A stretch of DNA of 3,578 nucleotides, from sequence record AJ298555.1; one strand, given 5' to 3'. Positions within the stretch are counted from its first letter, which is position 1. The number at the start of each line of letters is the position of its first letter. The position numbers were made by a program, and so were the translations under genes. The notes beneath the pieces are model-generated. The model was given only the letters and a program-made list of their open reading frames with translations, was not told the DNA's origin and made no database searches. The DNA comes from Enterobacteria phage HK240. This document shows positions 1 to 3,389 of this stretch, piece after piece.

Positions 1-46
1 GATGCCGACATGTGACTCCTCTAATCACTATTCAGGACTCCTGACA
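1..46 (+). promoter_or_regulatory. 5' leader of gene O with a Shine-Dalgarno AGGA at 34..37, 9 nt before the ATG at 47. The SD sits inside a perfect 11-bp palindrome CAGGACTCCTG (33..43). The window probably begins inside the P-O divergent late-promoter region, but the promoter core is not contained here.
   Basis: Seen in sequence: AGGA at 34..37, palindrome at 33..43, direct repeat GACTCCT at 14..20 and 36..42. Placement relative to the late promoter is from recalled P2 genome organisation. Confidence 0.4.
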
Positions 47-901
47 ATGGCAAAAAAAGTCTCAAAATTCTTTCGTATCGGCGTTGAGGGTGACACCTGT
101 GACGGGCGTGTCATCAGTGCGCAGGATATTCAGGAAATGGCCGAAACCTTTGACCCGCGTGTCTACGGTTGCCGCATTAACCTGGAACATCTGCGCGGCA
201 TCCTGCCTGACGGTATTTTTAAACGTTATGGCGATGTGGCCGAACTGAAGGCCGAAAAGATTGATGACGATTCGGCGCTGAAAGGCAAATGGGCGCTGTT
301 TGCGAAAATCACCCCGACCGATGACCTTATCGCGATGAACAAGGCCGCGCAGAAGGTCTACACCTCAATGGAAATTCAGCCGAACTTTGCCAACACCGGC
401 AAATGTTATCTGGTGGGGCTGGCCGTCACCGATGACCCGGCAAGCCTCGGCACGGAATACCTGGAATTCTGCCGCACGGCAAAACACAACCCTCTGAACC
501 GCTTCAAATTAAGCCCTGAAAACCTGATTTCAGTGGCAACGCCCGTTGAGCTGGAATTTGAAGACCTGCCTGAAACCGTGTTCACCGCCCTGACCGAAAA
601 GGTGAAATCCATTTTTGGCCGCAAACAGGCGAGCGATGACGCCCGTCTGAATGACGTGCATGAAGCGGTGACCGCTGTCGCTGAACATGTGCAGGAAAAA
701 CTGAGCGCCACTGAGCAGCGCCTCGCTGAGATGGAAACCGCCTTTTCCGCACTTAAGCAGGAGGTGACAGACAGGGCGGATGAAACCAGTCAGGCATTCA
801 CCCGCCTGAAAAACAGTCTCGACCACACCGAAAGTCTGACCCAGCAGCGCCGCAGCAAGGCCACCGGTGGTGGCGGTGAGGCCCTGATGACGAACTGCTG
901 A
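47..901 (+). CDS. O: Capsid scaffolding protein gpO, which doubles as the head maturation serine protease (284 aa).
   Basis: ORF 2..901 in the track, trimmed to the ATG at 47, which has an SD and gives the N-terminus MAKKVSKFFRIGVEGD. Stop TGA at 899..901. Length and sequence match my recollection of P2 gpO. The D19, H48 and S107 codons sit at 101..103, 188..190 and 365..367. The C-terminal half is rich in E, K, Q, L and A, consistent with a coiled-coil scaffold domain. Confidence 0.93.
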   Translation: MAKKVSKFFRIGVEGDTCDGRVISAQDIQEMAETFDPRVYGCRINLEHLRGILPDGIFKRYGDVAELKAEKIDDDSALKGKWALFAKITPTDDLIAMNKAAQKVYTSMEIQPNFANTGKCYLVGLAVTDDPASLGTEYLEFCRTAKHNPLNRFKLSPENLISVATPVELEFEDLPETVFTALTEKVKSIFGRKQASDDARLNDVHEAVTAVAEHVQEKLSATEQRLAEMETAFSALKQEVTDRADETSQAFTRLKNSLDHTESLTQQRRSKATGGGGEALMTNC

Positions 902-2036: not shown

Positions 2037-2780
2037 ATGACGAGTCCCGCACAGCGCCACATGATGCGGGTCTCGGCAGCGATGACCGCGCAGCGGGAAG
2101 CCGCCCCGCTGCGACATGCAACTGTCTATGAGCAGATGCTGGTCAAGCTGGCCGCAGACCAGCGCACACTGAAAGCGATTTATTCAAAAGAGCTGAAGGC
2201 CGCAAAAAAGCGCGAGCTGCTGCCGTTCTGGTTGCCGTGGGTGAACGGCGTGCTGGAGCAGGGCAAAGGTGCACAGGATGACATTCTGATGACGGTCATG
2301 CTGTGGCGTCTGGATACCGGCGATATTGCCGGTGCGCTGGAGATTGCCCGTTATGCCCTGAAGTACGGTCTGACCATGCCGGGTAAACACCGCCGCACCC
2401 CGCCTTACATGTTCACCGAGGAGGTGGCACTTGCGGCCATGCGCGCCCACGCTGCCGGTGAGTCTGTGGATACCCGCCTGCTGACGGACACCCTTGAACT
2501 GACTGCCACGGCTGACATGCCTGATGAAGTGCGCGCAAAGCTGCACAAAATCACCGGTCTGTTTCTGCGTGACGGTGGTGATGCCGCCGGTGCGCTGGCT
2601 CACCTGCAACGTGCGACACAGCTCGACTGTCAGGCAGGCGTCAAAAAAGAGATTGAACGACTGGAGCGGGAGCTGAAACCGAAGCCGGAGCCGCAGCCCA
2701 AAGCGTCCCCCCGCGCCCCGCGTAAGACCCGGAGCGTGACACCGGCAAAACGTGGACGCCCGAAAAAGAAAGCCAGTTAA
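2037..2780 (+). CDS. M: Terminase small subunit gpM (247 aa), historically annotated as the terminase endonuclease subunit.
   Basis: ORF 2037..2780. The ATG lies 3 nt after the N stop (TAA 2031..2033), indicating translational coupling. SD GGGAG at 2024..2028. The 744-nt length matches P2 M as recalled. The C-terminus is a strongly basic K/R/P-rich tail. Confidence 0.9.
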   Translation: MTSPAQRHMMRVSAAMTAQREAAPLRHATVYEQMLVKLAADQRTLKAIYSKELKAAKKRELLPFWLPWVNGVLEQGKGAQDDILMTVMLWRLDTGDIAGALEIARYALKYGLTMPGKHRRTPPYMFTEEVALAAMRAHAAGESVDTRLLTDTLELTATADMPDEVRAKLHKITGLFLRDGGDAAGALAHLQRATQLDCQAGVKKEIERLERELKPKPEPQPKASPRAPRKTRSVTPAKRGRPKKKAS

Positions 2781-2879
2781 CAACCGAATGCGCCCCGCGC
2801 NAGGGCGGCACGCGGNTCAGTGAGGGTGAATCACCTGACACTGCACCGGCGTCCACCGCCCGACTTTTCAGAGGTAGTC
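2781..2879. other. M-L intergenic region (99 bp), the only sizeable non-coding gap in the window. It is GC-rich with several alternative short dyads (2791..2815) and a perfect palindrome GGTGAATCACC (2825..2835). The L Shine-Dalgarno GAGG is at 2871..2874.
   Basis: Seen in sequence. Two ambiguous bases (2801, 2816) fall inside the GC-rich dyad region, so its exact structure is uncertain. No U-tract follows any stem, so it does not look like a strong intrinsic terminator. Confidence 0.35.
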
Positions 2880-3389
2880 ATGATGACGCTGATTATTCCG
2901 CGAAAGGAGGCTCCCGTGTCCGGTGAGGGTACGGTGGTCATCCCGCAACCGGCAGNCGACGAGCNGNTGATTAAAAACACGTTCTTTTTTCCCGATATCG
3001 ACCCGAAGCGCGTCCGGGAACGTATGCGCCTTGAGCAGACCGTCGCCCCCGCCCGTCTGCGTGAGGCCATCAAGTCAGGCATGGCGGAGACAAATGCGGA
3101 NNTGTACGAGTACCGCGAACAGAAAATTGCCGCCGGTTTTAGGCGTCTGGCGGACGTCCCGGCGGACGACATCGACGGTGAAAGCATCAAGGTTTTTTAC
3201 TACGAGCGCGCCGTGTGTGCGATGGCGACCGCGTCGNTTTATGAGCGTTATCGCGGCGTGGATGCCAGTGCGAAAGGCGACAAGAAGGCTGACAGCATTG
3301 ACAGCACCATTGATGAGCTGTGGCGNGATATGCGCTGGGCGGTGGCGCGCATCCAGGACAAGCCGCGCTGCATCGTGAGTCAAATCTGA
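2880..3389 (+). CDS. L: Head completion / stabilisation protein gpL (169 aa).
   Basis: Track ORF 2820..3389 begins at a GTG. The ATG at 2880 has an SD (GAGG 2871..2874, 5-nt spacer) and gives the N-terminus MMTLIIPRKEAPVSGEG with a 169-aa product, matching P2 gpL as recalled. Seven ambiguous bases inside the gene cause X residues in the translation. Confidence 0.88.
   Translation: MMTLIIPRKEAPVSGEGTVVIPQPAXDEXXIKNTFFFPDIDPKRVRERMRLEQTVAPARLREAIKSGMAETNAXXYEYREQKIAAGFRRLADVPADDIDGESIKVFYYERAVCAMATASXYERYRGVDASAKGDKKADSIDSTIDELWXDMRWAVARIQDKPRCIVSQI

Follow-up and report, generated by a model that had tools for sequence, protein, structure and literature searches.

A canonical AT-hook on the disordered C-terminal tail of the P2-type terminase small subunit gpM

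The terminase small subunit, gpM, of Enterobacteria phage HK240 ends in a tail carrying a real, conserved and canonical AT-hook, to which an accessory DNA-anchoring role can plausibly be assigned from its sequence. The motif lies in a 3,578-base stretch of sequence record AJ298555.1 (the window), which represents the segment for head and packaging proteins (O-N-M-L-X) of a P2-type phage and is ca. 98% identical at the DNA level to P2 itself and to the P2-relative sequences of the AJ2985xx series. Pfam matches place gpO, gpN, gpM and gpL in that order, in agreement with the annotation of P2, and the gpM gene is located within the late head-and-packaging operon. Residues 35-164 of the protein match PF05944 (Phage_term_smal) with 163.3 bits, the curated cut-off being 29.4, and residues 1-223 match PHROG 74 (“terminase small subunit”) with E = 2e-106. 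On the basis of older P2 biochemistry and genetics we take gpM to provide terminase activity jointly with gpP. The features of the gene are collected in Table 1.

Table 1. Features of the gpM gene and protein in the window
Feature	Window positions	Strand	Basis
gpM, P2-type terminase small subunit	2037..2780	+	247 aa plus stop; PF05944, PHROG 74, M in P2-type records
Helical TPR-like core, residues 1-213	2037..2675	+	AlphaFold2, Foldseek; kept family-wide
Last conserved helix GVKKEIERLEREL, residues 201-213	2637..2675	+	invariant G201, V202, K204, E207 and L209 in the clade
Hypervariable Pro/Lys/Ala-rich linker KPKPEPQPKASPRAPRKTRSVT, residues 214-235	2676..2741	+	column entropy, indels, pLDDT <50
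AT-hook PAKRGRPKK, residues 236-244; RGRP core 2751..2762	2742..2768	+	conservation, codon turnover
Variable C-terminal residues KAS and stop codon	2769..2780	+	translation, alignment

Some details of the record itself deserve mention. According to its Pfam match and to the annotation of P2, gpO starts at the ATG at window position 47 (P2 position 3167); the program-made list of open reading frames begins it at the ATG at position 2 (window 2-901). Ambiguous bases (N) occur at positions 2801, 2816, 2956, 2965, 2967, 3101-3102, 3237 and 3326. Positions 2811-2816 read cgcggn where P2 and its relatives have cgccgg, a discrepancy suggestive of compression errors where this old record is rich in GC.

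The translation of 2670..2780 is ELKPKPEPQPKASPRAPRKTRSVTPAKRGRPKKKAS followed by the stop codon, the peptide quoted in the first-pass annotation beginning at the L encoded from 2673. The last 34 residues (214-247) are KPKPEPQPKASPRAPRKTRSVTPAKRGRPKKKAS and contain 13 Lys or Arg, eight Pro and a single Glu, for a net charge of +12 as against +3 for the 213-residue core. Translation and coordinates thus confirm the earlier description of a basic, proline-rich tail with an RGRP near its end. The core of the motif (R239-G240-R241-P242) is preceded by K238 and followed by K243-K244-K245, which gives it a Lys/Arg flank on both sides; when the residues of the tail are shuffled, RGRP arises by chance in 0.43% of cases. 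In the linker the window encodes ASP where P2 has AAT (2706-2714), a difference of two substitutions in a GC-rich run that could be real or a sequencing error.

The AT-hook is described as an R-G-R-P core with basic flanks which lies in disordered protein and binds the minor groove of A/T-rich DNA (PMC11526092; PMC11354804). At the sequence level the gpM motif has what characterizes the class (PF02178 / SMART SM00384), namely the core, the K/R flanks and predicted disorder, and the earlier reading of RGRP and its flanks as an AT-hook agrees with the definition given in PMC11526092. PF02178 is not reported in full-length gpM proteins, and the precomputed Pfam annotation of the hook-bearing homologues lists no AT_hook family. 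With the 13-column PF02178 model the window tail alone scores 13.9 bits and the tails of relatives 15.7-17.0, the cut-off being 17.4. A fragment with the genuine HMGA1 hook-1 nonapeptide itself scores only 17.0 bits, below the same cut-off, so we treat this threshold as uninformative for a single hook.

A homologue search returned 1,310 proteins, the best 120 of which all share 65% identity or more with the gpM of the window. From these best 120 of 1,310 a clade set was made of the 99 cluster representatives that are full-length and non-frameshifted (65-98% identity). The pattern [KR]-R-G-(RG)-R-P-x-K is present near the C-terminus of 99/99, with the GRP core and its basic flanks falling within the last 25 residues. 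The commonest forms are KRGRPPK (26), KRGRPRK (24), KRGRGRPRK (24), KRGRGRPKK (9) and KRGRPKK (7), the remainder being a few other variants. The positions invariant in the clade alignment are G240, R241, P242 and K244, and conservation reaches at least 90% for P236 and R239. The columns of P236 and K238-P242 have entropies of 0-0.4 bits, with 0.9 for A237 and 0.15 for K244, the mean for the gpM core being 0.68 bits. The linker begins with a conserved K-P-K-P (214-217), after which nearly every column of about 218-235, R229/K230 apart, has an entropy of 1.4-2.7 bits, with many indels. Indel polymorphism is seen in this linker even at >95% identity (PKPEPQPKA, PKPEPKA, PKPEPQPQPKA), and is consistent with slippage in the CCG/CAG-rich repeat at 2676-2741.

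The codons for K-R-G-R-P are AAA CGT GGA CGC CCG in P2-type phages, AAG CGC GGG CGT CCA in 186-type phages and AAA CGT GGC CGA CCG in a Klebsiella Vimunumvirus. Synonymous turnover at every codon of the hook between the P2 and 186 types implies selection on the peptide rather than on the DNA, and the pattern as a whole indicates that the hook is under purifying, protein-level selection. The idea that the tail-coding DNA acts as a DNA or RNA signal was rejected, given the synonymous hook codons and the poor conservation of the linker DNA. A close relative lacking the hook is P0034 (223 aa, 81% identity), a singleton on a 2.6-kb contig, which ends ...ERLERALKRDSTGNNAR; the hook may have been lost by natural truncation, or its absence may be an artefact of assembly or of a frameshift. 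By their source names the hook-bearing proteins come from Enterobacterales, except for one labelled Vagococcus sp. and one from a Proteobacteria metagenome bin.

For a view of the whole family an exhaustive search was reduced to representatives of 50%-identity clusters, giving 1,034 family members, the best 150 of which were compared. Among these best 150 of 1,034 all hook-bearing proteins fall in one 50%-identity cluster, and RGRP was not found in the ca. 125 more distant representatives. In these the motif of the last helix is still discernible (GVKKDIERLEREL-like); most of the proteins end shortly after it, and others run on into acidic, neutral or Ala/Pro-rich sequence. In enterobacterial P2-like phages of four other genera, namely Salmonella SopEPhi (Felsduovirus), Klebsiella ST15-OXA48phi14.1 (Gegavirus) and ST13-OXA48phi12.1 (Dagavirus), and Yersinia YenM_31.17 (Graikaemvirus), only 5-6 residues of gpM follow the helix; in phages of Mannheimia and Shewanella the tail is acidic or neutral, and in Ralstonia phage RSY1 the protein ends KNTAKADAKEGDGRS. 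Basic tails without GRP occur in the unrelated gpM lineages P0156, P0204, P0207 and P0229, and the long tail of the gpM of E. coli phage 500465-2 (Gemsvirus, L015) has a basic end (...TRKTTATQKAKRG) and no GRP; on comparison, the basic tails of these four lineages and of the Gemsvirus lineage read as independent acquisitions.

The first-pass annotation had proposed to check whether the basic tail and its RGRP are conserved among P2-family M proteins. They are strictly so in the P2/186-type proteins (99/99), and the proposition fails for the ca. 125 distant homologues, which have no RGRP. Since the distant homologues lack the tail, it is to be regarded as a clade-specific accessory and not as part of the core terminase machinery. 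The simplest reading of the distribution would be a single gain of the hook in the common ancestor of phages of the Peduovirus, Eganvirus and Vimunumvirus types.

The structure of gpM was modelled with AlphaFold2 using a 100-sequence alignment (mean pLDDT 85.9). The model has ten helices over residues 4-213 and, by DSSP, no secondary structure thereafter. From residue 31 the pLDDT of the core is mostly 90-98 (80-98 in 10-residue blocks), and it is 67-82 over residues 1-30; in the tail it drops below 50 at residues 223-225, 227-238 and 244-247. The tail also falls far into the disordered zone of the charge-hydropathy plot, and the disorder that had been suspected of it is borne out by both predictors. 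The last helix (GVKKxIERLEREL) is the best-conserved C-terminal element across the family.

A sequence search of the PDB with gpM gave no match. When the model was compared with the PDB using Foldseek the best matches were to designed and natural TPR repeat proteins and were weak (E ~5e-3); relatives of gpM have sub-threshold TPR hits in Pfam near residues 165-198. No small terminase is among the 50 Foldseek PDB matches listed, so that these offer no DNA-binding template, and the predicted monomer does not match the ring-type small-terminase fold with its N-terminal helix-turn-helix, oligomerisation helices and C-terminal barrel. With a TPR-like core for which no solved small terminase is among the matches listed, the AT-hook is the sole recognisable DNA-binding motif in gpM. 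Since hook-less relatives exist, these must bind cos without it.

The M-L intergenic region (2781-2879) contains a conserved stem-loop, GGGCGG-CACGCCGGT ... ACCGGCGT-CCA-CCGCCC (window 2803-2861), and ahead of it a small hairpin, GCGCCCCGCGC (2790-2800). The stem-loop stops 10 nt short of the ribosome-binding site of gpL (GAGG 2871-2874; ATG 2880). RNAalifold analysis of six phages from five genera, hook-less ones included, gave 20 pairs, three of them with compensatory changes, and the DNA of the stem-loop is better conserved than the tail-coding linker. Rfam, terminator and promoter scans near the 3' end of M produced no match, and there is no T-run terminator at the stem-loop. It could act in the stability or processing of the mRNA, or could control the translation of gpL.

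As a candidate DNA partner of the hook we compared the cos junctions of P2, 10W, ENT4, the 186-like MHG39, Klebsiella Kp4852-2, 613R3 and the satellite P4 (L002:440-594 plus L001:1-60 for P2; the ends of L026 for P4), the hook status of the six hook-bearing phages being read directly or by close identity to P2. The hook-less comparisons number three, namely Gegavirus, Graikaemvirus and RSY1 (L009:390-540 for RSY1; L020:84-300 and L019:699-900 for the others). The PSP3-like SW9, in which the hook was not read and the cos match is gapped, was aligned and excluded from the A/T-run measurements. The cos of SopEPhi and of the Dagavirus was not located in the stretches compared, since in these phages cargo genes separate the portal gene from cos. 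Such cargo occupies this position in the hook-less Klebsiella and Salmonella phages L020 (a TIR-domain protein), L021 (RloB-domain and ATP-binding proteins) and L018 (two unnamed ORFs), and fits the anti-phage hotspot of P2 described in PMC9122126.

A common plan of cos extends from the E. coli to the Ralstonia phages and to P4. Three TGCAT repeats spaced 10-13 bp apart lie ca. 100 bp to the left of the cohesive end. To their right, and immediately left of the 19-nt end, come a fourth TGCAT, which is followed by an A-tract, and a GC hairpin; beyond the 19-nt end all junctions but that of the Graikaemvirus continue with CGCGCGC or TGCGCGC. The TGCAT array looks like the terminase-binding sites of the cosB type. 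In 6/6 measured hook-bearing phages and in P4 there is in addition a left-hand A/T run of 7 bp, TGCATTAAAA, at 20-29 bp to the left of the cohesive end (ATTAAAA in P2, 10W, ENT4, MHG39, Kp4852-2, 613R3 and P4), and a right-hand run of 8-16 bp consisting solely of A/T which starts ca. 21-26 bp past the cohesive end. P4 has no further homology to P2 in the right-hand region of cos. On the left side the hook-less phages have TGCATGAAAA (Gegavirus and Graikaemvirus) or TGCATAAAAA (ATAAAAA; RSY1), and their fourth repeat reads TGCAT(G/A)AAAA. To the right RSY1 and the Graikaemvirus have no A/T run of >5 bp, and the Gegavirus has one of 11 bp slightly further out. The hook-less phages keep the plan of cos, hence its primary recognition does not need the hook. 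The A/T blocks could receive the hook, a suggestion that we offer as a lead and not as evidence of function. On these alignments the association of A/T runs with the hook is weak and confounded by phylogeny, there being one gain and three hook-less comparisons, one of them from a GC-rich host.

The reading that we prefer, and to which we give roughly an even chance, is that gpM carries a disordered arm with an AT-hook, gained once on a TPR-like core, which acts as a minor-groove anchor, most probably at the A/T blocks of cos. The arm, a variable Pro/Lys linker of ca. 22 residues ending in one AT-hook (PAKRGRPKK), would have been added once in the ancestor of the enterobacterial P2-, 186- and Vimunumvirus-type phages to a core that functions elsewhere without it. 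At an A/T tract its RGRP core would enter the narrow minor groove and the Lys/Arg flanks would contact the DNA backbone, each terminase subunit thereby gaining a flexible extra anchor on DNA. A lone AT-hook binds DNA weakly (in the micromolar range). From the identity of the hook with characterised AT-hooks we infer minor-groove binding by gpM. The likeliest targets would be the A/T blocks flanking the nicking site, TGCATTAAAA on the left and the 8-16 bp run on the right; cos as the target is speculative, as is an effect on affinity, positioning or bending rather than on primary specificity.

The tail might instead be a generic polycationic tether which attaches electrostatically to any nucleic acid, with no preference for A/T or for the minor groove, and holds the terminase or aids its sliding. 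Its charge of +12 within 34 residues would suit such a tether, and the basic GRP-less tails of P0156, P0204, P0207, P0229 and Gemsvirus 500465-2 suggest selection for charge. We nevertheless consider it unlikely, for the linker drifts in sequence, length and charge beside a hook with four invariant positions, and the fixation of Gly and Pro is not explained by a purely electrostatic role. The tail might also dock on a protein, be it the large terminase gpP, the portal gpQ or the procapsid; such docking has precedent in several other small terminases, which use C-terminal segments in this manner; the C-terminal regions of lambda gpNu1 and P22 gp3 contact the large subunits. Small-terminase C-terminal regions are, moreover, frequently disordered (PMC11331095). 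However, there are hook-less genera with homologous O-N-M-L modules whose gpM ends right past the last helix, and a family-wide contact with TerL therefore cannot reside in the tail. The conserved last helix is a better candidate for docking than the variable tail, whose motif is identical to a proven DNA-binding peptide (PMC11526092), and a docking function strikes us as quite improbable.

DNA binding by the tail could also be unrelated to cos, for example in clearing A/T-rich phage DNA of H-NS or other nucleoid proteins, or in a moonlighting regulatory role. Bacterial AT-hook-like motifs such as the “RGR” of H-NS/Lsr2 and those of WhiB7 and CarD regulate at A/T-rich DNA, as PMC11354804 and other papers report, and the hook clade is by source names confined (the labels mentioned above apart) to the Enterobacterales, which have H-NS. 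Against this, the gene belongs to a late packaging operon and there is no sign of a second function of gpM, so that we judge such a role very improbable. That the tail is a neutral, functionless low-complexity extension would accord with its absence from most of the family and from the close relative P0034, but can hardly be credited when the hook is kept in 99/99 proteins of 65-98% identity and its codons turn over synonymously beside a drifting linker.

A bolder version of the anchoring proposal would have the hook add a second, minor-groove read-out of cos, at the right-hand A/T block (ca. 21-38 bp) and/or at the left-hand ATTAAAA, which P4-type satellites have copied; the hook would then be a lineage-specific determinant of specificity. 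We think this distinctly unlikely. If true, the hook would help to decide which helper terminase packages which satellite or related phage; P4 as a satellite must be packaged by a P2-type terminase. We know of no solved structure of the P2 terminase, whose small subunit does not look like the solved ring-shaped small terminases; the hook gives a testable handle on how cos is read. P2/P4 cosmids and transducing particles serve as delivery vehicles, and knowledge of which flanking A/T sequences count would aid the design of packaging signals. The importance of the tail is limited by its restriction to one clade and by its being dispensable for the family overall.

In the open-access literature we found no AT-hook described on P2 gpM or on any PF05944 protein, nor in connection with “P2-like”. 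The AT-hook class, and GRP motifs on other small terminases, are already known; new is the hook on a P2-type gpM. Among the closest systems are the hook-less PF05944 proteins (of Felsduovirus, Gegavirus, Graikaemvirus, RSY1 and others), which have the core fold family, gene order and cos plan in common with the hook-bearing gpM, but end 5-20 residues past the last helix or in acidic or neutral tails in which RGRP is absent.

The closest precedent for the proposed mechanism is the small terminase of HK97, which has disordered terminal arms that become ordered on DNA, an arginine entering the minor groove beside an A:T run (PMC11331095). This “arginine clamp” resembles the gpM model in placing disordered terminal segments on the small terminase of a cos phage. 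It differs in that N- and C-terminal segments fold into a substructure on a ring, there is no GRP, and the protein is unrelated to PF05944. GRP “AT-hooks” have been pointed out in the N-termini of E. coli prophage YffO (PKKRGRPAK) and Sf6 gp1 (EPKAGRPSD) (PMC10380284). There the motif is beside the DNA-recognition part of a small terminase of a different family, N-terminal and adjoining a helix-turn-helix, whereas in gpM it is C-terminal, at the end of a long linker on a TPR-like core without a helix-turn-helix.

The nearest likeness at the level of the motif itself is to HMGA1, with which the gpM tail has in common the R-G-R-P core, the K/R flanks and the disordered, Pro-rich context. A crystal structure (PDB 8CPG) has hook 1 of HMGA1, KRGRGRPRK, bound in the minor groove of d(CGTTAATTAACG)2, and the peptide binds AT DNA with a low-micromolar Kd as compared with a Kd of >10 uM on (CG)4 (PMC11526092). 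This nonapeptide is found identically in 24/99 gpM relatives, and the PAKRGRPKK of the window resembles the Reeves consensus TPKRPRGRPKK (PMC11354804). HMGA1 carries three hooks and gpM one per chain, so any multivalency in gpM would have to come from oligomerisation.
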